This document shows positions 5,065 through 37,504 of a stretch of 64,000 nt of DNA, piece by piece. The DNA comes from Pyrinomonadaceae bacterium. GTDB taxonomy: Bacteria > Acidobacteriota > Blastocatellia > Pyrinomonadales > Pyrinomonadaceae. The notes beneath the pieces are model-generated. The model did not search any database. It was not told where the DNA came from and saw nothing but the letters and a program-made list of their open reading frames with translations. The translations under genes were made by a program, and so were the position numbers. The stretch is from positions 1,186 through 65,185 of the forward strand of contig JBGTJP010000007.1 of assembly GCA_041745075.1 (NCBI GenBank). Reading direction: 5' to 3'. Within the stretch, counting starts at the first letter, position 1; each line of letters starts with the position of its first letter.

Positions 5065-7191
5065 TCAGGCCCCAATGTCCTGGCCGACAAACCTCATCTG
5101 GGCGTCAAATGTTTCGCCCCCCGAAGCCTTTCGGTAGGTTCCATCCGGGCGTAGGATACGTGCGTTCGTGTTGTCTTTCAGATAGCTTCCCAGAATTTCA
5201 TCGCGCAGATATGCTCTTATTCCCGGGTCGATGACCGGTACGACTATTTCGACCCGGCGATCAAGATTTCGCGACATCCAATCCGCACTGCCGATATACA
5301 CTTCATCCTCGCCGCCGTTCGCGAAATAAAGTATCCGGCTGTGTTCAAGAAATCGCCCGACGATCGAACGGACACGGATATTTGACGAAAGTCCTTTTAC
5401 TCCGGGACGAAGGGCGCATATTCCGCGAATGATCAGATCGATCTCGACCCCTGCGTGCGACGCGTCGTAAAGTTCCTGAATAAGATCTTCGTCGGTAAGG
5501 CTGTTCACCTTGACAATGATCCGCGCCGACTTTCCCGCGAGTTTGTTTGTTCGCTCTCTTCTGATCAAATCGGTCAACTTCTCGCGCATATTCAATGGCG
5601 CGACAGACAGCCGCTGATACTTGTCCTGCTGTGAATAACCCGTCAGAAAATTAAAGAGGCTGGTCGCGTCTTCGGCGATCTCTTCATCCGCCGTGAAAAG
5701 TCCCAGGTCGGTGTAAAGGCGCGACGTCGTCGGATTATAATTACCTGTACCAAGGTGCACATAACGGACGAGCTTGCCCTTCTCACGCCTGACAACAAGC
5801 AGCACCTTGGAATGTGTTTTCAACGAACTAATGCCGTAAACGACGTGCACACCCTCATTTTCAAGCCGACGCGCCCATTCGATATTGTTTTCTTCGTCGA
5901 ATCTCGCTTTTAGCTCGACGAGGGCCGTGACCTGTTTGCCCAAGAGCACCGCTCGGATCAGCGAGTTTACGATTGGTGAATCCTTGCCCGTGCGATAGAG
6001 GCAAATTTTGATCGCCCGGACATCGGGGTCTTCGGCGGCCAGAGCGAGAAAATCCGTAACAACCGAGAACGACGTGTAAGGATGGTGAAGAAGCACGTCC
6101 TGTTTTTTAAGAACGTCAAAAATACTCTTTTTCTCAAGCAGCACCGATGGATGAACGATCGAGATCGGCCTGTCCTTGAGTTCAGGACGGTCGAGCGAAT
6201 AAAGCTGCATAAGGTCTGGGATGTCGAGAAAGCCATCGACCTTGAAAACATCCTGTTCCGTCAGGCCGATACCGTCGGTAAGCAGCTTAAGCATTTTTTC
6301 GGGCATCGCCTCGGAGACTTCGAGCCGGACTGGAAAACGGAACCGCCGCCGCTGGAGTTCGTTCTCAAGCGTCCGCATAAGGTCGCCCGCCTCGTCTTCG
6401 CGCAGTTCGATGTCCGCATCCCGCGTCACCCTGAACAAATATCCGTCGCTCGCCTTCATCTTTGGGAACAAGGCCTGAGCATTTGCGGCCACAACCTCTT
6501 CCATCAGGGCAAACCGTCCGTTCTTTTCACTTATCGGTATCAGCCGCGGCAATTTCGGCGGCAGCTTTATGCGTGCAAAGCGCTTTTGACGGAAAAGATG
6601 TTTTAAGTTCTTTTGTGTGACATTCCGGTTGGGCTCGATGAAAATGCCGATGTTAACGCTAAGGTTCGAAATATAAGGAAACGGGTGGCTTGAATCGACC
6701 GATTGCGGCGTAAGGATAGGGAAAAGATTGTCGCGAAAATATTTATCGAGTTTTCTCCTGTCCTTGGCATTTAGTGACCTGTAAGGCTCAATCGTGATCT
6801 TTGCCTCCGCAAGATCCGGCAGCACGCGATCTCTCAAATAGTTGACCTGCCGTTTCACCATCGGCCGAAGGCGTTTGCCTATCTCACGGATTTGTTCGGC
6901 CGCGGTCATACCGTCAGCCGACAGTTCGCTGACGCCCTCGTTAACCTGTTCCTTCAACCCCGACACGCGGATCATAAAAAACTCATCAAGGTTTGTCGAA
7001 AAGATCGAAAGAAATTTTAGGCGTTCGAGGACCGGCAGGTTCTGGTCCATTGCCTCGTCGAGCACCCGGCGGTTGAATTCCAGCCAGCTCAGCTCACGGT
7101 TAAACAGCGTCGCCCCGTCGAAGGCTTCGGTGGACGAGTCAACAATCGATTCGGATGTAACCTTGGATGCTTTTATATCGCCGTGGATCAT
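5065..7191 (-). CDS. ppk: polyphosphate kinase 1
   Basis: 708 aa. FNRELSWLEFNRRVL and LKFLSIFSTNLDEFFMIR near the N-terminus and ...THSKVLLVVRRE... in the PLD-like C-terminal half are classic PPK1 stretches. Confidence 0.95.
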   Translation of the reverse strand: MIHGDIKASKVTSESIVDSSTEAFDGATLFNRELSWLEFNRRVLDEAMDQNLPVLERLKFLSIFSTNLDEFFMIRVSGLKEQVNEGVSELSADGMTAAEQIREIGKRLRPMVKRQVNYLRDRVLPDLAEAKITIEPYRSLNAKDRRKLDKYFRDNLFPILTPQSVDSSHPFPYISNLSVNIGIFIEPNRNVTQKNLKHLFRQKRFARIKLPPKLPRLIPISEKNGRFALMEEVVAANAQALFPKMKASDGYLFRVTRDADIELREDEAGDLMRTLENELQRRRFRFPVRLEVSEAMPEKMLKLLTDGIGLTEQDVFKVDGFLDIPDLMQLYSLDRPELKDRPISIVHPSVLLEKKSIFDVLKKQDVLLHHPYTSFSVVTDFLALAAEDPDVRAIKICLYRTGKDSPIVNSLIRAVLLGKQVTALVELKARFDEENNIEWARRLENEGVHVVYGISSLKTHSKVLLVVRREKGKLVRYVHLGTGNYNPTTSRLYTDLGLFTADEEIAEDATSLFNFLTGYSQQDKYQRLSVAPLNMREKLTDLIRRERTNKLAGKSARIIVKVNSLTDEDLIQELYDASHAGVEIDLIIRGICALRPGVKGLSSNIRVRSIVGRFLEHSRILYFANGGEDEVYIGSADWMSRNLDRRVEIVVPVIDPGIRAYLRDEILGSYLKDNTNARILRPDGTYRKASGGETFDAQMRFVGQDIGA

Positions 7192-7272
7192 ATGGACAAT
7201 CTCTAATTATAGACGAAGCTGCCCAAATGGTGTTTTAAATTCGTGTTAAGGGAATGTTACAGCAATTGCGGC

Positions 7273-7851
7273 TTATTTCAAGATAGTAACCTTTGTTCCG
7301 GCGGGGATCGCTTCAAAAAGCTCGGCCATTTCATCGTTTTGAAGAGCGATGCAGCCGTCGGTCCAATCGCCGGCCGTTCCGCCGCCGTGGATATAGATCT
7401 CACCGCCCAAAGCAGTTTTTTGCGGCGGCATGCCTCGTTCATTGATCGCTTTTACAATTATGTTGTGTTCGTCTTTTGTGATCAACCCGCCGGCAAGACC
7501 GCGTTTGGCATCGTCCTTTGCGGGGTAGCTGAGGCCTAAGGACAGGTGAAAACGGCTTTCGGGATTTTTTGTGAAGACATAAAACTCGCCCTCGGGCGTG
7601 CGGCCATCGCCTTCGACTTCCTTGTCGTCGTTTGGCGAAAATCCGAGCACCATCCGGAATGTTTTAACCAATTTTCCGCCGTCATAAACCTCAAGCGTCC
7701 GGGCGGATTTACGGATGGTGACGGTTGGTTCTTTCAGGCCGGTGAGTTTGGTCTTTTGCATTTCCGTCGAAGTAAGCTGCATAAACGCGGCAGTGGCACA
7801 AACCGCGAGCGTAACTGCGGTAAGAATAATAATAAAACTTTTCCGACTCAT
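7273..7851 (-). CDS. L,D-transpeptidase (YkuD domain), exported
   Basis: N-terminal hydrophobic signal and the catalytic motif IYIHGGG...DGCIAL. Confidence 0.85.
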   Translation of the reverse strand: MSRKSFIIILTAVTLAVCATAAFMQLTSTEMQKTKLTGLKEPTVTIRKSARTLEVYDGGKLVKTFRMVLGFSPNDDKEVEGDGRTPEGEFYVFTKNPESRFHLSLGLSYPAKDDAKRGLAGGLITKDEHNIIVKAINERGMPPQKTALGGEIYIHGGGTAGDWTDGCIALQNDEMAELFEAIPAGTKVTILK

Positions 7852-20070: not shown

Positions 20071-20161
20071 CATCAAGCATATTTTGTGGTGAGTTAATTG
20101 CGACTTGCGACCACGTTAAATAATCCGCTAAACAGCTTGCAGGACAAAACGAATTTGAAAA
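20071..20161 (+). promoter_or_regulatory. structured leader (candidate riboswitch/attenuator) upstream of the methionine-cycle gene
   Basis: Nested pairings caagc (20074-78)/gcttg (20135-39) and gtggt (20086-90)/accac (20110-14), with a U-rich joiner. A TTGACA box lies at 20045-50. The leader is followed directly by the terminator hairpin at 20162. No riboswitch class could be assigned by eye. Confidence 0.3.
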
Positions 20162-20188
20162 GTCTCGCTGTTGCAGCGAGGCTTTTTT
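20162..20188 (+). terminator. intrinsic terminator / SD-sequestering hairpin just before the ORF start
   Basis: gtctcgctg-ttg-cagcgaggc (the last position of the 9-bp stem is mismatched) followed by TTTTTTGTT. The 3' arm contains GAGG about 12 nt upstream of the ATG at 20192. Confidence 0.6.
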
Positions 20189-20191
20189 GTT

Positions 20192-22081
20192 ATGAAAAAC
20201 TTTCGGGAATTATTGGATTCGGACAGCGTTTATGTCTTTGACGGAGCGGTCGGAACGCGGCTCTACGACAAAGGCGTTTACATAAACCGAAGCTATGACG
20301 AGCTGAACCTGACCGCCCCCGATCTTGTCCGCGAGGTTCACGAAGAATACGTCAAGGCCGGTGCCGACATAATCGAAACGAACTCATTCGGTGCCACACG
20401 GCACAAACTGCAGCCATACGGTTTGGAAAGCAGGCTCCGCGACATCAATTTTGCCGCTGCCCGGATAGCACGCGAGGCCGCCGGAGAGGACGTTTTTGTT
20501 GCCGGTGCCGTCGGGCCTCTCGGCCTGCGCATCGAACCTTACGGCCCCACATCATTCGATGAGGCAAAAGATCTTTACAAAGAGCAGATCGCGGGACTGC
20601 TTGAAGGCGGTGTGGACCTTTTTATACTTGAGACATTTTCCGAGCTTGCCGCTATCGAACAGGCCATCAGGGCGGTCCGCGAACTTTCGGATCTGCCGAT
20701 CATCGCGCAAATGACCATCCAAATGGATGGAAACACAACTTTCGGCACGTCGCCCGAAGCCTTTACCGTCCGATTGGACAACCTGGGAGCCGATGTTATA
20801 GGCCTGAACTGCGGCATGGGCCCGAACCACGTTTTGACGGCCCTTGAAAAAATGCGGGGCGTCACAACCAAGAACCTGTCCGCACAGCCGAACGCAGGCC
20901 TTCCCCGCGATGTTCAGGGCCGGCAATTTTATATGGGATCGCCCGAATACATGGCGACGTTCGCAAAACGTTTTGTTCAGGCTGGAGCCCGATTTGTTGG
21001 AGGCTGCTGCGGGACGACACCTACCCATATCAAACTGATCGCCGATTCGATCCGCTCGATCAGTCCCCGTCAGCAGGTATTCGCATTATCGGCCGCCGCA
21101 AAAGTGACCGAGCTTACACCGAGCGACGTTACAGTCGTTTCGCCCGAAGAGCGTTCGAACTGGTCGCGCAAGATCGCCCGCCGCGAATTTGTTACATCCG
21201 TCGAGGTACTGCCGCCAAAGGGTTGCGACGCGCAAAAGACGCTCGAATCGATCGCTTTGTTAAAAGATGCCGGCGTCGATGCGGTGAATATTCCTGACGG
21301 CCCGCGTGCCCAAACGCGCATGTCCGCTCAGGCAACCGCGGTTTTGGTCGAGCAAAAGGTCGGCATCGAAGCCGTTTTGCACTACTGCTGTCGCGACCGG
21401 AACCTGCTTGGGATGATGTCGGACCTGCTCGGCGCAGCCGCACTCGGCCTGCACAATTTGCTCATCATCACGGGCGACCCGCCAAAGATGGGGCCTTATC
21501 CTGACGCCACCGCGGTTTTCGACATCGATTCGATCGGCCTGACGAATATGGCGAACAAGCTCAACCACGGGCTTGACCTCGGGAACAACCCGATCGGTCT
21601 GCCGACCGCTTTTTCGATCGGTGTTGGGGTGAATCCAGGCGCCGTAAATCTTGAGGAAGAGATCCGCCGTTTTGAATGGAAGGTCGAGGCGGGTGCCGAA
21701 TATGCTATCACTCAGCCGGTGTTCGATACCGAACAGCTTCGGACATTTCTCGAAAAGATATCGCACGTAAAGATCCCGATCGTTGCCGGCATCTGGCCGC
21801 TGGTTAGTTTTCGTAACGCCGAGTTTTTGCACAACGAAGTTCCCGGCGTCAATGTCACGCCCGAGATCCTGGAACGCATGCGCGTCGCCTCGGAAAATAG
21901 CAAGGAAAAAGCTCGGGAAGAAGGAATCGCGATCGCCCGCGAATCGCTCCTGGAAGTAAAAGATATCATCGCGGGAGTTCAGGTTTCGGCACCCTTTGGC
22001 AATGTACGCTACGCTTTGCAGGTTTTCGATGTCCTTGATGAATTTTCGAGTGAGCAAATTGATGTTGCGGCAGTTCAGTAG
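20192..22081 (+). CDS. bifunctional homocysteine S-methyltransferase-domain / 5,10-methylenetetrahydrofolate reductase (YitJ-like)
   Basis: The N-terminal half has the Hcy-binding domain pattern (...GADIIETNSF..., ...GGCCGTTP). The C-terminal half is MetF-like (...LLIITGDPP...). Confidence 0.88.
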   Translation: MKNFRELLDSDSVYVFDGAVGTRLYDKGVYINRSYDELNLTAPDLVREVHEEYVKAGADIIETNSFGATRHKLQPYGLESRLRDINFAAARIAREAAGEDVFVAGAVGPLGLRIEPYGPTSFDEAKDLYKEQIAGLLEGGVDLFILETFSELAAIEQAIRAVRELSDLPIIAQMTIQMDGNTTFGTSPEAFTVRLDNLGADVIGLNCGMGPNHVLTALEKMRGVTTKNLSAQPNAGLPRDVQGRQFYMGSPEYMATFAKRFVQAGARFVGGCCGTTPTHIKLIADSIRSISPRQQVFALSAAAKVTELTPSDVTVVSPEERSNWSRKIARREFVTSVEVLPPKGCDAQKTLESIALLKDAGVDAVNIPDGPRAQTRMSAQATAVLVEQKVGIEAVLHYCCRDRNLLGMMSDLLGAAALGLHNLLIITGDPPKMGPYPDATAVFDIDSIGLTNMANKLNHGLDLGNNPIGLPTAFSIGVGVNPGAVNLEEEIRRFEWKVEAGAEYAITQPVFDTEQLRTFLEKISHVKIPIVAGIWPLVSFRNAEFLHNEVPGVNVTPEILERMRVASENSKEKAREEGIAIARESLLEVKDIIAGVQVSAPFGNVRYALQVFDVLDEFSSEQIDVAAVQ

Positions 22082-29187: not shown

Positions 29188-29268
<81 letters not shown>

Positions 29269-29339: not shown

Positions 29340-29415
29340 TGGTGGGCACGAAGGGACTCGAACCCCTAACTTCCTCCTTGTAAGGGAGGCTGTCTACCAA
29401 TTGACGTACGTGCCC
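29340..29415 (-). tRNA. tRNA-Val (anticodon TAC)
   Basis: The reverse complement has the acceptor stem GGGCACG/CGTGCCC, anticodon stem-loop CCTCC-CTTACAA-GGAGG, T loop TTCGAGT, and A-CCA at the 3' end. Confidence 0.88.
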
Positions 29416-31072: not shown

Positions 31073-32062
31073 ATGAAAACAAAATTGACGTACATTGCGG
31101 TCGCTGTCCTGCTGTTGACCGGCCAGTCTTTTGCTCAAGGGCTGCACTGGTACAAAGGCAACACGCATACTCACACGCTGAACAGCGACGGGGATTCGAC
31201 GCCGGACGAGGTGGTGAAATGGTACCGCGAACACCGATACAATTTTCTCTTCATCACCGACCATGAATATTTGACCGACCCCGGGCCGTTGAACGCCGTG
31301 TTTGGAAAACCGGGTGGTTTTCTTTTGATCGGCGGGCAAGAGGTGACCGATTCGTTCGACAAGAAGCCATATCACACGAACGGCCTGGGCGTATCAAAGG
31401 TCGTGATGCCCAACAAACTGCCGGGAGCGGTCGAGACCCTTCAAAAGAATATCGACGATATTATCAAGGCGGGCGGGATCGCCCAGATAAATCATCCGAA
31501 TTTTGGATGGGCCCTGGATGCGGAAAAGCTTATCAAGCTGCAAAACTACACGCTGCTTGAGATCCACAACGGCCATCCGCTGGTCAACAATCTCGGCGGC
31601 GGAGGCTTCCCCAGCGCCGAGGCCTTATGGGACAGCGTTTTGACCAGCGGGAAACTTGTGTTCGGCGTGGCCGATGACGATTCGCACGGCTTCAAACCGT
31701 CCCGCGATGCCATCGTTGCTTTACCCGGCCAGGGCTGGATATACGTCCGTGCGGCCGAGCTGACACCCGATGCGATCATTGCGTCGATAAAGAAGGGAGA
31801 TTTCTACGCTTCGACCGGTGTGGAACTGTCCGATTATCAGGCAAATGCCCGGCAGATCACCGTAACGATAAAACAGACGAATTACAGCAAGTACCGCATC
31901 AAGTTCATCGGCAGCGGCGGCCGCGTCCTGACCGAAGCACTCGCCAGCCCCGCAACCTACACCATCAAGGGCAACGAAGGCTACGTCCGCGCAAAGATCT
32001 TCGAATCCAACGGAAAAATGGCCTGGACCCAGCCGGTTCTTGTTCCAAAAAGCGGGAATTAA
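31073..32062 (+). CDS. exported PHP-superfamily (CehA/McbA-like) metallohydrolase
   Basis: Signal peptide, then GNTHTHTLNSDGD...FITDHE...HPN...DDSHG metal-ligand pattern. Confidence 0.7.
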   Translation: MKTKLTYIAVAVLLLTGQSFAQGLHWYKGNTHTHTLNSDGDSTPDEVVKWYREHRYNFLFITDHEYLTDPGPLNAVFGKPGGFLLIGGQEVTDSFDKKPYHTNGLGVSKVVMPNKLPGAVETLQKNIDDIIKAGGIAQINHPNFGWALDAEKLIKLQNYTLLEIHNGHPLVNNLGGGGFPSAEALWDSVLTSGKLVFGVADDDSHGFKPSRDAIVALPGQGWIYVRAAELTPDAIIASIKKGDFYASTGVELSDYQANARQITVTIKQTNYSKYRIKFIGSGGRVLTEALASPATYTIKGNEGYVRAKIFESNGKMAWTQPVLVPKSGN

Positions 32063-32272
32063 GCTCTTGAGCCAGAGCCAAATGACGTTCCTTGTCGATC
32101 CGGCGTTCGCCCGCCGTTCAGGCCGCGTTCCGTCAATCGCCGGAACGTGCAACCCACTGAAACCATTTGGCTTACGCGTTCAAAAAGGCGAAATTCAGCC
32201 GATTTTGCAAAAAACTTTTTCGAAGCGCAGAACGCGAAATTCTCAAAGAACGGAGCGCTAAAAACCGAGGCG

Positions 32273-32298
32273 CAAGAACAAACAGGTGCCACACCTGT
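32273..32298 (-). terminator. probable terminator downstream of the helicase gene
   Basis: acaggtg-cca-cacctgt hairpin (32282-32298). On the minus strand it is followed by TTTGTTCTT. Confidence 0.45.
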
Positions 32299-32343
32299 CT
32301 TGAAACAGTGTAGCACAAATGGCGCGCTTGCGATCAATAAAAT

Positions 32344-34881
32344 CTAATCTCTCGCAACAACCGTGTCGTATAACCCGTAATGAGTTAAACCTTCATGCCT
32401 TCCGATCCCGGTATAGTGCAGCGAAGCATCCTCGTAACGACGGAAAGCAAAAACCGCCTGGTTCATTTGCTCGGTGTTGAACACCCTCAGACGAACGAGC
32501 AGTTGAAAATCCTTCACCGTCAGGCCGGTTACGGTGAGAAACAGGTCCGGTTCGATCTTGGTAATGACATCCTGGAGCGTGTTTTCACGGTAGTCGGTCA
32601 AGTACATGAATGCCGGAATGCGCGTGGCGAACTTGATCAGCTTTTCCTGAACCATCTTCCGCTTGGACTTGTATTCTTTTTCCTCGGCGGTCAGTTCCTT
32701 CTTTTCTTTATCGGTAAGGTCTTTCTTCTTGGCCTTGTTCTTAAGGTCCTTAACCCGTTCGCTCTTGTTGATGATCGTCTCGATGATGTTGTCGCCGAGC
32801 GCTCGCCAGCCTTCGATCCGTTCCACCGCGGCCATGGCTTCAGGGTCGTCGAAAACGCGTCTAAGGGTATCGTTATCGACGTTCACGAGCAGAGCACTTT
32901 CCCATTTCCTCGCAAGGAGCGTAGCCGACGTTCCGGCCATCGCGATATCGAGAATGCCGCCGGCGTCGATCTGCGTCATGTTCGCGCCGTCGTATGCAAG
33001 CACGGGCAGGAAGGATACGAGGTCTTTTACGGCGTTCTCGGGGTTCGGCTCGTTCGGGGAAAGGCCTATAGCGTAATCAGAAAGCTGTCGCAAGGCCCGC
33101 GTTGGGGCGAAGTCAAAGACAAAGCAGATCGGCTTTAGTATCTCTTCCTCGTTCGGATCGTCGCCGTTCGGATTTTTGATAGACCATGGCGATTGGACAC
33201 GGAACGCCGATTGAAAATAGGTTTCGGGCGATTTGAGGTTGCGAAGCATTAGAATGGACGACCACTGCAGGATAGTCACACCTGTCGTTAGCTTGCCGCA
33301 CGAGAGAGTTATGGTCTTCGTGTCGAATCCGCTCCCGATCGCCTTACGCACAGGCGGCAAAGCGTCCAAACCGATTCCCGCCGAGGCTCCGGCGGCAACT
33401 ATCACCTCATAGTCGCTCCAGAATGTGTTGTGCTTCTCCGCAAGGAGGTTCGCCATTGCGTGACAGGCCGCGACATTCGGCAGGAACCAGAATGAGTGCT
33501 GAAGATACGGCAGAAGACGAACGTCCGAATATGGAAACGGCGGACGCGTTCCGGTCTTCAGAAACTCGACCGCCTTCGGCATATATCCGCCGCGAATGAT
33601 GTCCAGCCACTTTTGAACGTCGCTCTTGTGCTTGAACTGAGCCAAAAAATCCCGGCCCGATGCTTCGAAAAATGCGTTAAGGTCAAACTCGTCAAATTCG
33701 CCCGCACTCGCGATAGCCAGCAGTTCGTCCGGCATCTGATAGGTCAAAAGCCGCATCTGCGGCAACGCTCCGTAAGGATTACGTTTGTCGGGATGTTGGT
33801 CTGCAAATTCTTCCTTTGCTCGCTGTTCGTCGGTGTAAGTCCAGTTGAATATCTGTTCCTCGATAAACTCGCCGGTGGAGAGCGCTCTGAAAGGCGTGCC
33901 CGAAAGATATAGATATGCCTTGGTCGTGATCGGCAGGAACTCAGCTTCTTTCTCCGAAAGCTCGCCGAGATCTACGTTAACGTCCGCAAGATCGCCGCCG
34001 TATTCGAGCTTGGCTTCTTTCTTTGCGACCGATTCTTCTTCGCCCTCGAATAGTTCCTTCGCCGTCTCTCTCCACGCGCCGAAATGGTATTCGTCGAAAA
34101 CCACGAGGTCCCAATTTACAGCATGAAGCCATTCGTTCTTCGGCTTGATGTTGCCGAACAGGTCCCGGCCGAGCAAGTCTTGAAAGGAACCAAAATAGAC
34201 GACGGGTTTCGAAGCCTTGATCTTCGTCGGGTCGCTGCCGGAGCTTTTCGAAAGGTATTGCCACCCGTCGAAATCCACGTGCGATTCCAGATCGGTCCGC
34301 CACGCATCTTCGACGGCTGGTTTGAACGTGACTACCAGAACGCGTTTGGCACCGAGCTTCTTAGCTAGCTGATATGCCGTGAACGTCTTCCCAAAACGCA
34401 TCTTCGCATTCCACAGAAAACGCGGAACGGCGTGCATATCTTCCTTCCAGATCGAATGAAAGTAAGCGTGTGTTTTTCTCACGGCCTCAACCTGTTCGGA
34501 GCGCATCGGGAAAGTTTCGTGATGCGTGCCTGTGAACCGCTGGCCGGTACGAAGTTCGGTAAGAACGGTCTTCACGTCATCGACGGTACACCGCACCCAT
34601 TCCAGTTCCGGGTTTTCGAATTTCTTGGCTTTGAGGGCAGCTCGAACGGCGTGGTCGGAGATGATCGAACCGTCATCGCACTCGGCAGATTCGTTGAGTT
34701 CGATCTTGAAATTCTTGATCGCGGCGGTCTTCAACTGCTCCCCGATCCGCTGCTTCACGTCCCGCGTTGTTTGCCCCACCTTGAGAAGCCCTTTATGAGC
34801 CTCATCCGCGATCGAGTAAGCATAGATCCGCGGCCGAGCCTCGGGTTTTGGAGAGAGGATTTCTTCGATGGTCTTACTCAT
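32344..34881 (-). CDS. T5orf172/GIY-YIG-like N-terminal domain fused to SF2 (Type III Res-like) helicase
   Basis: The N-terminus has RIYAYS...GLLKVGQTTRDVKQRIGEQL...ELEWV (T5orf172-like). Helicase motifs follow: MRFGKT (I), VVFDEYH (II), LSGTPF (III) and QSAFRVQ (VI-like). The ATG at 34881 overlaps the stop of the upstream methylase by 8 nt. The track uses a TTG at 34887. Confidence 0.85.
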   Translation of the reverse strand: MSKTIEEILSPKPEARPRIYAYSIADEAHKGLLKVGQTTRDVKQRIGEQLKTAAIKNFKIELNESAECDDGSIISDHAVRAALKAKKFENPELEWVRCTVDDVKTVLTELRTGQRFTGTHHETFPMRSEQVEAVRKTHAYFHSIWKEDMHAVPRFLWNAKMRFGKTFTAYQLAKKLGAKRVLVVTFKPAVEDAWRTDLESHVDFDGWQYLSKSSGSDPTKIKASKPVVYFGSFQDLLGRDLFGNIKPKNEWLHAVNWDLVVFDEYHFGAWRETAKELFEGEEESVAKKEAKLEYGGDLADVNVDLGELSEKEAEFLPITTKAYLYLSGTPFRALSTGEFIEEQIFNWTYTDEQRAKEEFADQHPDKRNPYGALPQMRLLTYQMPDELLAIASAGEFDEFDLNAFFEASGRDFLAQFKHKSDVQKWLDIIRGGYMPKAVEFLKTGTRPPFPYSDVRLLPYLQHSFWFLPNVAACHAMANLLAEKHNTFWSDYEVIVAAGASAGIGLDALPPVRKAIGSGFDTKTITLSCGKLTTGVTILQWSSILMLRNLKSPETYFQSAFRVQSPWSIKNPNGDDPNEEEILKPICFVFDFAPTRALRQLSDYAIGLSPNEPNPENAVKDLVSFLPVLAYDGANMTQIDAGGILDIAMAGTSATLLARKWESALLVNVDNDTLRRVFDDPEAMAAVERIEGWRALGDNIIETIINKSERVKDLKNKAKKKDLTDKEKKELTAEEKEYKSKRKMVQEKLIKFATRIPAFMYLTDYRENTLQDVITKIEPDLFLTVTGLTVKDFQLLVRLRVFNTEQMNQAVFAFRRYEDASLHYTGIGRHEGLTHYGLYDTVVARD

Positions 34882-36475
34882 CTTCAACCGTCGTACCGAG
34901 CTCCATTGGCTTGATTAAAGACTCGATGTAGTCAACTTGCTCTTGTGAAAGACCATACTTCTTGTAGAGCTCCTCATCGGTCCATTCGCGATCCCAGGTC
35001 TGAACGGGCACCCATGTATAGACTGATCGGCTGGCATGCTGCCCGATCTTCCGTAGCCAAAGAAGAAAACGAAATAACCTCGTCGAATAATAGGAGGCCG
35101 CGCTTTTCGCCTGCTGCTCCGAATCGAAACCTCCAATCACCATGAACGTCTGCGTACATACCGCTCCGGGACCGACTACCATTGGGGCTCCGACAATTCG
35201 GTTCGGGAATCTCTCTGCAATCCTGTATGCCTCAGATACCAAAAGCTTCCATACATCAACCAAGTCCTTTCCCCGTGTCACTTGTGACCTATCTACATAA
35301 GCTGTCTTTCGGACTGCCATTCGCCCACCCGCGTTGTAATGAAGAATCAAGTCTCCCGGTACAAACGATTCCCGGAAGTCTGAGAATGTACTTGGAAGCC
35401 CAAAGGGCGCATGTCGGCTGGCTAGGGCGGACATCGAGGTCTCGCCTACGGCTAACACCCTCTCAAGGATAGACACGGCTTCGGCATCTCGTACAAAGAC
35501 ATCATAGGCATTGAGATCACGGTCCACAGTCCTCTCAACGCCTCCGCGAATAGTTGTCACTTCGCACGAGTCGTTATGGTTCGCGTCCCAGAGGAAATAT
35601 GAAATCCCGCCACCAACGTCTACACCCGGAAATACTTCGGAGGAGATCGGGTAATCAACAATCGCGCGAAGGCGCTTGTCTGCAAGCATTTCAGCACGAT
35701 AGTCGTCCAGGCGATTCCCGCCCGCGAACCAACGTGATGGAGTAACCATCGCGAGAAAGCGGGGTTCAAGAGCTTTTGCTCTTCGCACGAACTCCTGATA
35801 GATCGGAACCGCTCCAGCCGCTCCATCGCCTAGCTGATAGGGTGGATTCCCAACAATTACGTCGAACTGCATTTCGCCTCCAAATATCTCATTTACTCTT
35901 GTCTTGATGTCGTCCGTGTGGAGGACCGCATAGGCATGGGTTTCCATGTTATCGCCCCGATCATAGGTCGTTTGGCTGCTGCCGCAGTATTCGCACCTTC
36001 CGCCCTTCCACGTGTGCTCCAGCCTTTCGAACCAGATGTGACCTCCGGCATCCGAAAATCCCGCGACAATCGAATGCTCGCCGTTGGCGTGCTTCGAGCA
36101 ATACACGCTTCGCCGGGCGAGCAGGCTGGTGAGATGGGTGATGGCGATGCCGAAAACCTGTTTTGTCAGGATGTGATCTACGCGCGTTTGCAGGTCGGGC
36201 ATCTCTTTCGCCAGGCCGCCCGTGAGGCGGCTGGTTATCTCGCGAAGGAAAACGCCCGATTTTGTACACGGGTCGAGGAACCGGACCGAACTATCCGCCC
36301 ACAGGTCCGCCCCGTCATTGTCCGCCGCCCACGCCTCAGCCAATGTATCCAGCATTCGGTTCGCCAGCTCCGGCGGCGTGAATACCTCGTCGTTCGACAG
36401 GTTCGCGATGCACGTCAGCACATCCGGGTTCCGCCCCCGCAATGAAAAACCAGCCTGTTCGTTCATAGCTTCCAT
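34874..36475 (-). CDS. Eco57I-like gamma-class N6-adenine DNA methyltransferase
   Basis: Motif X NDEVFTPPELANRML, motif I RFLDPCTKSGVFL, and motif IV DVIVGNPPYQ (NPPY at 35837-35848). It also has a CEYCG zinc-ribbon-like insert and a long C-terminal putative target-recognition region. Confidence 0.9.
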   Translation of the reverse strand: MEAMNEQAGFSLRGRNPDVLTCIANLSNDEVFTPPELANRMLDTLAEAWAADNDGADLWADSSVRFLDPCTKSGVFLREITSRLTGGLAKEMPDLQTRVDHILTKQVFGIAITHLTSLLARRSVYCSKHANGEHSIVAGFSDAGGHIWFERLEHTWKGGRCEYCGSSQTTYDRGDNMETHAYAVLHTDDIKTRVNEIFGGEMQFDVIVGNPPYQLGDGAAGAVPIYQEFVRRAKALEPRFLAMVTPSRWFAGGNRLDDYRAEMLADKRLRAIVDYPISSEVFPGVDVGGGISYFLWDANHNDSCEVTTIRGGVERTVDRDLNAYDVFVRDAEAVSILERVLAVGETSMSALASRHAPFGLPSTFSDFRESFVPGDLILHYNAGGRMAVRKTAYVDRSQVTRGKDLVDVWKLLVSEAYRIAERFPNRIVGAPMVVGPGAVCTQTFMVIGGFDSEQQAKSAASYYSTRLFRFLLWLRKIGQHASRSVYTWVPVQTWDREWTDEELYKKYGLSQEQVDYIESLIKPMELGTTVEDE

Positions 36476-36484
36476 TCTTCTCTT

Positions 36485-36761
36485 GCGGCTCCGCCGCTCT
36501 ATTTGCGGTGAAGCTGTGCTTCACCGATTGGCCTAACCTGATATTCGCGGCTATGCCGCCGCCCTTTGCCGACAAGCGGCGGCACAGCCGCAAGTCTTTT
36601 CAACCAGCGAACGGAAAAGCAAAGCTTTTCCGCAAATAGATGGGCAAAGCCCACGGAAGACGTTGTCAAGATTTCCAGATCGTCGCGTAGCGACGACTGA
36701 ATCAAACGTCGCTACGCGACGTGAACATTGCTCGAACATCACCGTGGGTTGAAACCCACGG
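36485..36761. repeat. cluster of seven stem-loops filling the intergenic spacer
   Basis: The hairpins are: 36485-97 (gcggc/gccgc); 36506-26 (cggtgaagc-tgt-gcttcaccg); 36554-84 (tgccgccgc...gcggcggca); 36612-32 (cggaaaagc-aaa-gcttttccg); 36641-53 (tgggc-aaa-gccca); 36681-721 (perfect 15-bp arms cgtcgcgtagcgacg / cgtcgctacgcgacg, each arm itself palindromic); and 36742-61 (ccgtgggt-tgaa-acccacgg). Confidence 0.7.
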
Positions 36762-36767
36762 CTACAA

Positions 36768-37409
36768 TCATTCGACCGCTACGCGGTCAGCGGCAAGTTC
36801 GCTCACCGTCATCGCCGGATAAGTCTTGGTTGGCGAGAATATCTCGTGCTTTTCTACATTCGCCCAGAGTGAACCTTCGGCACTGAAGGCTGCCGATTGC
36901 GTGAGGCTGGCGAGAAGAAAGTCGCGCCTTTGAAACTTGCCCTTGCCGAGATAGCCCCACTCAGCGAACGTTAGCGGTTGACCCTCGTCAGTCAACATCT
37001 TCATCGCATCGCCGTGAACGAGATTTTGCGAGAGCACATAGAAAGCTGCCCGATACAGGTCGTCCGTCTCGCCGATATTCAGGTATCCGGCAAATATTTC
37101 AAGGAGATTCGCCCGGCATTCGGCGATGTTGTCAGGCAGAAGCTCAATGCCGTAAATGCACATCAGCCCGAGCAGGGCATAATGTCGCTTTTCAAAGTCC
37201 GACCTTCCATACTTGAGCTCAACTGCCAAAATCTTTCGCTTTAAGATCTGAACGAGGAAGTTGCCGCTTCCGCACGCAGGCTCCAGAAAGCGCGAATCTA
37301 TCCGCTCGGTCTCGTCCTTCACGAGATCAAGCATCGCCTCGACCATCCACGCGGGCGTAAATACCTCTCCATGGTCGGCGACACGTTGTGCTGATTTTAC
37401 AAGTGACAT
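36768..37409 (-). CDS. DNA-methyltransferase-like protein lacking the catalytic NPPY motif (truncated paralog or non-catalytic SAM-binding protein)
   Basis: 213 aa with motif X HGEVFTPAWMVEAML, motif I RFLEPACGSGNFLV, and IELLPDNI...VHGDAM (motifs II/III). No (N/D)PP(Y/F) follows, and the last 90 aa or so are unrelated to any methylase core I recognise. Confidence 0.65.
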   Translation of the reverse strand: MSLVKSAQRVADHGEVFTPAWMVEAMLDLVKDETERIDSRFLEPACGSGNFLVQILKRKILAVELKYGRSDFEKRHYALLGLMCIYGIELLPDNIAECRANLLEIFAGYLNIGETDDLYRAAFYVLSQNLVHGDAMKMLTDEGQPLTFAEWGYLGKGKFQRRDFLLASLTQSAAFSAEGSLWANVEKHEIFSPTKTYPAMTVSELAADRVAVE

Positions 37410-37504
37410 GGGAAATCTGGAGGAAGTATAACTCGATTTCGCTCGTCACGACAATTGATGTGATGGGCGTGGCGGGCGCCTGCTTAAACTTCAATTCGGG
37501 CGGC

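Follow-up and report, generated by a model that had tools for sequence, protein, structure and literature searches.

The subject of this study is a candidate restriction-modification (R-M) cassette in a stretch of 64,000 nucleotides from a Pyrinomonadaceae bacterium of the Acidobacteriota (assembly GCA_041745075.1, contig JBGTJP010000007.1, positions 1,186 to 65,185 of the forward strand); throughout the text we refer to this whole stretch as the window. The cassette consists of three genes, all intact and all read from the minus strand, in the order SM (213 aa), a half-methylase, MT (533 aa), a methylase, and HEL (845 aa), a helicase with a putative nuclease domain. An initial annotation of the window had described three co-directional minus-strand genes between a PHP-type gene and hslO, and the list of open reading frames (ORFs) gives the same coordinates; the motifs that it quoted are also present, and show little or no variation among 64-81 homologs. 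The features of the locus are collected in Table 1.

Table 1. Features of the cassette locus and its surroundings, in window positions.
Feature	Position	Strand	Description
SM	36768-37409	-	213 aa; Pfam N6_Mtase, profile positions 18-96 of 311 only
MT	34874-36475	-	533 aa; Pfam Eco57I 5.6e-30; putative modification and specificity subunit
MT motifs X and I	36245..36391	-	residues 29-77; DEVFTPP, LDPCTKSGVFL; invariant in 66 homologs
MT Cys/His insert	35984..36100	-	Cys126/His129 ... Cys161/Cys164, between motifs II and III
MT motif IV NPPY	35837..35848	-	catalytic; residues 210-213; invariant in homologs
MT hypervariable block	35096..35578	-	putative target recognition domain; residues ~300-460
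MT/HEL overlap	34874..34881	-	8 nt, GATGAGTAAG / ATGAGTAA; MT stop and HEL start
HEL	32344-34881	-	845 aa from ATG; Pfam ResIII 3e-7 and GIY-YIG-clan MUG113; putative restriction subunit
HEL T5orf172/GIY-YIG-type domain	34537..34833	-	residues 17-115
HEL superfamily 2 ATPase core	33187..34512	-	residues 124-565
HEL C-terminal region	32347..33186	-	residues 566-845; 75-99% conserved
Inserted island	32063..37504	.	~5.4 kb, bounded by the stop codons of hslO and of the gene for the PHP-like metallohydrolase
Palindromic repeat insert	36482..36787	.	fills the SM-MT spacer; supplies the last codons and the stop codon of SM
Sigma-70-like promoter match	37425..37454	-	upstream of SM; weak, 9/12 positions
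PHP-like gene	31073-32062	+	329 aa; weak Pfam match, E 0.015

The comparison of loci is based on the best 80 HEL relatives, which are 81-87% identical to HEL over the full length and come from Acidobacteriota, Proteobacteria, Planctomycetota, Verrucomicrobiota, Chloroflexota, Bacillota, Actinomycetota, Cyanobacteria, Bacteroidota, Nitrospirota and Deinococcota, among other phyla, with cultured isolates included. In virtually every one of these 80 loci that has sufficient upstream sequence, SM, MT and HEL follow each other in the same order on one strand, as expected of the coherent R-M-like system that the initial annotation had proposed. The 8-nt overlap between MT and HEL, which had been taken there as a sign of translational coupling, is kept in 50 of 65 related loci, indicating that the two genes are indeed coupled in this way, and in 44 of 60 other loci SM and MT overlap by 4 nt. 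Well beyond the best 80, a scan with one genome per species recovered HEL relatives in at least 592 species from nearly all bacterial phyla; members of the family are carried by plasmids of rhizobia, Deinococcus, Corynebacterium, enterococci and lactococci. Complete genomes of E. coli contained no copy of the cassette, and phage genomes yielded 5 weak records only.

Across the family HEL diverges at ~24% of its nucleotides and ~15% of its residues. Its synonymous sites are saturated (proportion of synonymous differences, pS, 0.73), and with a nonsynonymous divergence (dN) of 0.10 the ratio of nonsynonymous to synonymous divergence (dN/dS) is at most 0.045; for SM the ratio is ~0.07. The GC content at third codon positions of HEL ranges from 0.36 to 0.88 and tracks the GC content of the flanks (r = 0.62). 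Taken together, the saturation of synonymous sites and the adjustment of base composition to the host show the copies to be ameliorated residents under strong constraint, and not the outcome of a recent sweep or a binning artefact.

The cassette has been inserted between two genes that are neighbors elsewhere. A block of synteny consisting of the genes for a polyprenyl synthase and a flavin reductase, the PHP-like gene and hslO is kept in 2 related Pyrinomonadaceae assemblies, in which the distance from the PHP-like gene to hslO is 58 nt (L207) and 15 nt (L209). Relatives with the two genes adjacent and no insert, a case already considered in the initial annotation, therefore exist, and the locus in the window is accordingly a 5.4-kb insert. 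These flanks are not shared by the cassette copies in the 80 other loci, and one of the two assemblies with an empty site carries its own copy of the cassette in a different place, between mgtE and ffh (L083); another close copy (L082) adjoins a GmrSD gene. The GC content of the cassette is similar to that of its flanks. As reported earlier, no direct repeats were found around the cassette of the window, and neither an integrase nor a transposase was seen in the ORF list of the 29-41 kb region, in which some flanking ORFs were left unscanned.

In MT, motif X (residues 29-35), motif I (66-77) and motif IV (NPPY, 210-213) are followed by a variable block (300-460), and this order, with a C-terminal target recognition domain (TRD), is the one that defines the gamma class of N6-adenine DNA methyltransferases. 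Two PADLOC models are matched, MTase_II (1.7e-40) and positions 1002-1359 of REase_MTase_IIG. The cofactor pocket is less orthodox: motif I has the derived form DPCTKSGVF, in which Lys72 replaces the first Gly; every MT module, including those of fused relatives ~30% identical, has K-(S/T)-G for the G-x-G of this motif; and strand 2 lacks an acidic residue at its end (motif II). Within the Cys/His insert C126, C161 and C164 are invariant and H129 is conserved in at least 90% of sequences. This insert is found in the split subfamily only and is missing from the fused relatives; it is a putative zinc ribbon, which may substitute for the covalent link to the motor.

The hypervariable block of MT is only 20-35% identical between sequences, versus 65-94% for the N-terminal half, and 66 sequences of it form 17 clusters. 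The identity of the block is uncorrelated with that of HEL (r = 0.04), in contrast to the identity of the MT N-terminus (r = 0.48), which supports the notion that the block recombines independently of HEL and represents a specificity domain subject to shuffling. A constant motor associated with a freely recombining specificity domain is a signature of R-M systems, known from HsdS of Type I, from MmeI and from the TRDs of Type ISP enzymes.

Motifs X (GEVFTP), I (FLEPACGSGNFL), II (YGIE) and III (HGDA) of SM are all canonical, and motif IV, (D/N/S)PP(Y/F/W), is absent from SM and from its three divergent homologs. The initial annotation had thus rightly described an NPPY-less protein, which is however no stray extra paralog: with 67-82% identity in 63 loci, it belongs to the conserved core of the system. 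In L. lactis pCV56A, in E. faecium p211b-a and in a metagenome contig, the start of the fused enzyme is overlapped by an SM-like gene (200-248 aa); SM is thus a core partner even where relatives share only 30-38% identity. Two simpler origins were considered and rejected: a duplication of the N-terminal half of MT, because the alignment of SM to MT is restricted to the segment from motif X through motif I and helix A, and a pseudogene remnant, which is ruled out by the conservation of SM, by purifying selection and by its presence beside the fused relatives. PDB searches with SM returned generic motif X-I matches only. We infer from the motif pattern that SM is a non-catalytic subunit that binds S-adenosylmethionine (SAM).

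The superfamily 2 (SF2) motifs of HEL, RFGKT (162-166), DEYH (263-266), SGTPF (327-331) and QSAFRVQ (557-563), are invariant in 81 sequences, and their core residues are invariant also in relatives 30-56% identical; HEL matches positions 179-797 of the PADLOC model REase_MTase_IIG (8.7e-36). For the N-terminal domain, a match to PF10544 (T5orf172) is precomputed for a protein identical to HEL (P0001), and 36 of 45 diverse HEL relatives match the same family, the best with 1.4e-11. Among the relatives 30-56% identical Y20 and K34 of this domain are invariant, and G36, R45 and E94 are at least 90% conserved. By analogy, Y20, R45 and E94 fit the catalytic Tyr/Arg/Glu set of GIY-YIG nucleases. The domain is also the only part of HEL that was confidently modelled by AlphaFold (AF2), as beta-beta-alpha-beta-alpha-beta-alpha. 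A precedent for nuclease function exists in ICP1 Gp88, a T5orf172 protein that retains the catalytic Arg and Glu and whose nuclease activity is experimentally supported (PMC8263062). As the initial annotation had stated, neither a PD-(D/E)xK domain nor an S subunit is present, in that the cassette proteins have no Pfam match of either kind.

HEL and MT both match one and the same PADLOC model of 1359 positions (PDLC03626 REase_MTase_IIG), which predicts that a fused relative should exist. An exhaustive search with clustering at 50% identity retrieved 1145 related clusters at E ≤1e-30, among them single chains in which T5orf172, ResIII and Eco57I domains follow each other in this order (P0372, P0388, P0379); residues 745-1193 of P0372 align with the whole of MT. 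Fused proteins of ~1450 aa are common on plasmids of Enterococcus, Lactococcus and Lactobacillus. In the fused relatives the region equivalent to the C-terminal region of HEL runs directly into the methylase module, and on this ground we regard the C-terminal region of HEL as a putative domain for coupling or for docking on MT.

The order nuclease, helicase, methylase, TRD in the fused relatives makes the Type ISP enzymes (LlaGI, LlaBIII) the best analogue of the cassette: the modules are the same, i.e. an N-terminal nuclease, an SF2 ATPase, a linker, a gamma-class N6-adenine methylase and a C-terminal TRD, and both are plasmid-borne in lactic acid bacteria. The expected logic is also shared, with an asymmetric site, a single methylase that brings its TRD with it and a motor driven by ATP (PMC3553950); four active lactococcal 'ISP' systems have been reported in a paper whose detail is insufficient to tell whether they belong to the cassette family (PMC12418389). 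There are also differences. Type ISP enzymes are single polypeptides with an Mrr/PD-(D/E)xK nuclease, whereas the nuclease of the cassette family is of the T5orf172/GIY-YIG type, MT and HEL of the window are separate, and the methylase gene lies upstream of the motor gene; moreover, the cassette family is always accompanied by a half-methylase subunit, and the SAM-pocket motifs of its MT are derived. On balance, we interpret the locus as a horizontally acquired, intact, ATP-dependent R-M operon that is Type ISP-like but split into three proteins, and we would assign to this interpretation a probability of about 0.72.

In the corresponding mechanism, MT would bind a short, probably asymmetric DNA sequence by means of its variable C-terminal domain and would methylate an adenine (N6) at this target, thereby marking the DNA of the host. 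HEL would dock on MT; on an unmethylated target its ATP-driven SF2 motor would translocate along double-stranded DNA, and the N-terminal T5orf172/GIY-YIG nuclease would cut. As there is only one active site in the GIY-YIG fold, a double-strand break would probably need two converging or cooperating enzymes. SM, with a canonical SAM pocket next to an MT whose own pocket motifs are derived, would be a conserved non-catalytic subunit of the complex, most likely with a role in binding or sensing the cofactor and in assembly.

A more specific proposal is that SM and MT make up an obligate two-part methylase, in which catalysis is supplied by the NPPY motif of MT and the SAM pocket by SM. This proposal, which we regard as doubtful, draws on the pairing of SM and MT in split and fused relatives (30-38% identical), and such divided labor would help to explain the extreme conservation of the partner proteins. 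If it were true, the dedicated task of SM would be to bind or sense SAM and so to license methylation, restriction or both, and SM might also detect a depletion of SAM induced by phages. We know of no R-M type for which an arrangement of this kind has been described.

Several observations weigh against the interpretation of the locus as a Type ISP-like operon. No PDB chain, including the solved LlaGI and LlaBIII, was matched at E ≤1 by HEL, by MT, by their profiles or by the fused pCV56A protein. The two AlphaFold models are poor (predicted local distance difference test scores of 60 and 44), because the alignments are shallow, and therefore offer no structural confirmation; a Foldseek search of the PDB with the poor HEL model found nothing significant. 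HEL itself reaches 20.2 bits for MUG113, below the curated cut-off of 22.3, and the non-canonical motifs I (KSG) and II make it uncertain whether MT is active as a methylase on its own. In the window the insertion of a repeat between SM and MT breaks their coupling, and the balance of expression may be altered as a result. The closest analogue in composition that has been described, dnmA-yeeB-yeeC of B. subtilis, displayed neither restriction nor anti-phage activity, although protective homologs from Vibrio are cited in the same study (PMC9973331). Finally, no biochemical characterization of the family was found in the literature.

A rival explanation is a defense or epigenetic module based on methylation that does not cleave DNA, in which MT would mark self, HEL would act as a translocase or remodeller that blocks the replication of unmarked DNA in a BREX-like manner, and the T5orf172 domain would only bind DNA. 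The marginal GIY-YIG-clan match of HEL is in keeping with this explanation, and so is the history of T5orf172, first described as a DNA-binding type of domain and with functions still called 'largely uncharacterized' (PMC9973331). We nevertheless consider it unlikely: equivalents of the catalytic Tyr, Arg and Glu are conserved even among distant relatives (30-56% identical), a T5orf172 protein has been found to act as a nuclease (PMC8263062), and in the Type ISP-like fused relatives the domain sits exactly where the nuclease belongs. 

Even less probable is that the locus is a decayed relic, in which only MT would matter, as a regulatory orphan methylase, and SM and HEL would be inert passengers, which is what has been proposed, on experimental grounds, for dnmA-yeeB-yeeC of B. 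subtilis (PMC9973331). Decay does occur in the family, as in the copy invaded by IS21 (L063) and in the one with a broken MT (L083), and the ancestral SM/MT overlap of the window has been disrupted by the repeat; but the three ORFs of the window are full length, every invariant residue is intact, and dN/dS values of 0.045 for HEL and 0.07 for SM are incompatible with inert passengers at the level of the family. A bona fide Type III system (Mod + Res) is highly improbable: from the Type III-like layout seen in the initial annotation only the gene order survives, in that the cassette shares with EcoP15I and EcoP1I a specificity-bearing methylase followed by a helicase-nuclease with a ResIII-type ATPase (mod-then-res, here with overlapping genes and a Pfam ResIII match of HEL), and some sources name homologs 'type III restriction endonuclease', whereas MT belongs to the gamma-class Eco57I family with a C-terminal TRD and not to the beta-class Mod proteins with a central one, the nuclease domain is an N-terminal T5orf172 and not a C-terminal PD-(D/E)xK, a third conserved subunit (SM) is present, and the Type III models of PADLOC and NCBIfam remain unmatched.

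The proposed Type ISP-like operon can also be set beside three other known designs. With dnmA (yeeA)-yeeB-yeeC, a type of operon conserved in defense islands (PMC2731913, PMC9973331) for which workers at New England Biolabs have proposed a Type I-like mechanism (PMC2731913), it has in common a T5orf172 domain, an SF2 helicase and an adenine methylase of the gamma class that carries its own TRD. This likeness is judged by the list of parts, and there are differences: T5orf172 and helicase are separate genes in B. subtilis and fused in HEL, the methylase is a large MmeI-family protein there versus a 533-aa MT with a match to Eco57I only and none to MmeI in Pfam, and no half-methylase of the SM type has been described for it. 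Type I systems (HsdR/HsdM/HsdS) resemble the cassette in the arrangement of HEL (a nuclease followed by an SF2 motor and a helical C-terminal region, as in HsdR), in the combination of a conserved motor with variable specificity, and in the hitch-hiker genes found between the core genes (PMC9881135); the cassette differs in having no HsdS, in the location of specificity within MT and in the fold of the nuclease. Classical Type IIG enzymes, in turn, are single R-M chains without an ATPase motor, whereas the cassette is split and its SF2 motifs are intact, so that the resemblance to Eco57I concerns the methylase module only.

The possibility, raised in the initial annotation, that the family might be uncatalogued was not borne out: more than 8000 protein clusters hold members of it, and a PADLOC 'Type IIG' model and PGAP names exist. 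These labels, and the 'H.' entries for helicase-domain proteins in REBASE, are computational, and none was seen with a recognition motif or an activity attached. In a REBASE-based table for R. leguminosarum (PMC8709438), three genes in a row are listed, and the helicase-domain protein among them has an 82.7% match; this is probably the same cassette. No paper describing the cassette family was found in the literature; the family is widespread but apparently uncharacterized.

In our opinion the interest of the cassette lies mainly in its ubiquity, in its extreme conservation and in the unexplained SM subunit. The family is among the more widespread designs of ATP-dependent R-M systems, and would add a motor enzyme armed with a GIY-YIG/T5orf172 domain to the group formed by Types I, ISP and III. 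It also raises the question of why a non-catalytic half-methylase with a SAM pocket is always retained. With HEL conserved at ~85% identity in the face of saturated synonymous sites, a single characterized member would inform on thousands of genomes. From a practical standpoint, the cassette is likely to hinder the transformation of many environmental and industrial strains, and the 17 TRD types among 66 copies make the family a source of new methylation specificities.

The 292-bp spacer between SM and MT, described in the initial annotation as packed with hairpins, is strongly structured indeed (z = -10.5 versus shuffled sequences) and contains three palindromes, but it is an inserted copy of a dispersed repeat, and most other loci have the 4-nt overlap in its place. 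A 21-nt hairpin (core at 36742-36762) lies just past the stop codon of SM, and positions 36742-36787 (+) match the Rfam family RF01687 (Acido-Lenti-1) over the full length of the model with 24.5 bits (E 0.0016), versus a gathering score of 37. At least 120 unrelated metagenome contigs (L087-L206) contain the exact 21-mer, and none of them carries SM, MT or HEL; the copies in these contigs score 37-45.7 bits against RF01687, i.e. at or above the gathering score, and the hairpin often occurs as inverted pairs 100-180 nt apart, with up to 8 copies in 8 kb. The element is composite, being made of a small GC hairpin, TGAATTTA, the 21-nt hairpin GCCGTGGGTTTCAACCCACGG, ~20 nt, a second small hairpin and TTGAAT. 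No further copies of the spacer hairpins were found within the window, and a 25-mer from the second hairpin had no match in the metagenome scan. The (G/T)TAG directly 5' of the stem is reminiscent of repetitive extragenic palindromic (REP) elements. The distribution of the copies suggests that the Acido-Lenti-1 'small RNA motif' behaves like a mobile repeat of the REP or REPIN type. In the window the element has replaced the ancestral 4-nt overlap of SM and MT and is not a component of the R-M system; a regulatory role in the system was considered and is ruled out by the overlap at other loci and by the dispersed copies on contigs without a cassette.

In other genomes the SM|MT and MT|HEL junctions are recurrent insertion points for accessory genes (L003, L013, L016, L028, L034, L040, L046, L053, L054, L056, L062, L069, L070, L080). 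These encode RhuM, Fic-HTH, YhcG/DUF1016, Schlafen-AlbA_2, KilA-N, an M78 peptidase with DUF4411, PIN, PDDEXK_3 and an OLD/AbiEii-like ATPase; Type I operons, too, are reported to have genes for DUF1016, RhuM, Fic/DOC and GIY-YIG proteins lodged between their core genes (PMC9881135). Two ORFs without Pfam matches also lie between MT and HEL, one of 257 aa (L082, 7235-8008, +) and one of 349 aa (L028, 5901-6950, +), and are possible accessory or defense genes. As to the decayed copies, MT of L083 is broken into ORFs of 322 and 87 aa (6159-7447) next to a HEL 95% identical to that of the window, and in L063 (1363-4773) an insertion of IS21 (IstA/IstB) has removed SM and the N-terminal half of MT, so that this locus, a candidate for a variant 'half-MT' architecture, was rejected as an IS21 truncation.

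The product of hslO, on one side of the island, is identified by Pfam as HSP33 (6.7e-90). On the other side, the description of the 329-aa neighbor as PHP-type is backed by its homologs in metagenome-assembled genomes of Pyrinomonadaceae, named CehA/McbA or PHP-domain metallohydrolase in public sources, but its own Pfam match is weak. The number of sigma-70-like sites in the region, including the one upstream of SM, is not above chance. Two tRNA genes on the minus strand (29192-29265 and 29343-29415) are found ~3 kb from the island; they do not represent the insertion site, because three conserved housekeeping genes separate them from it. Farther away in the window, a SAM-II riboswitch (RF00521, 'Alpha-proteobacteria SAM') is recognized at 20076-20152 (+) with 42.8 bits versus a gathering score of 36. 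It lies directly upstream of an ORF (20171-22081, +) for a fused homocysteine S-methyltransferase and methylenetetrahydrofolate reductase (MTHFR), and its occurrence in acidobacterial DNA is outside the nominal taxonomic range of this riboswitch family.

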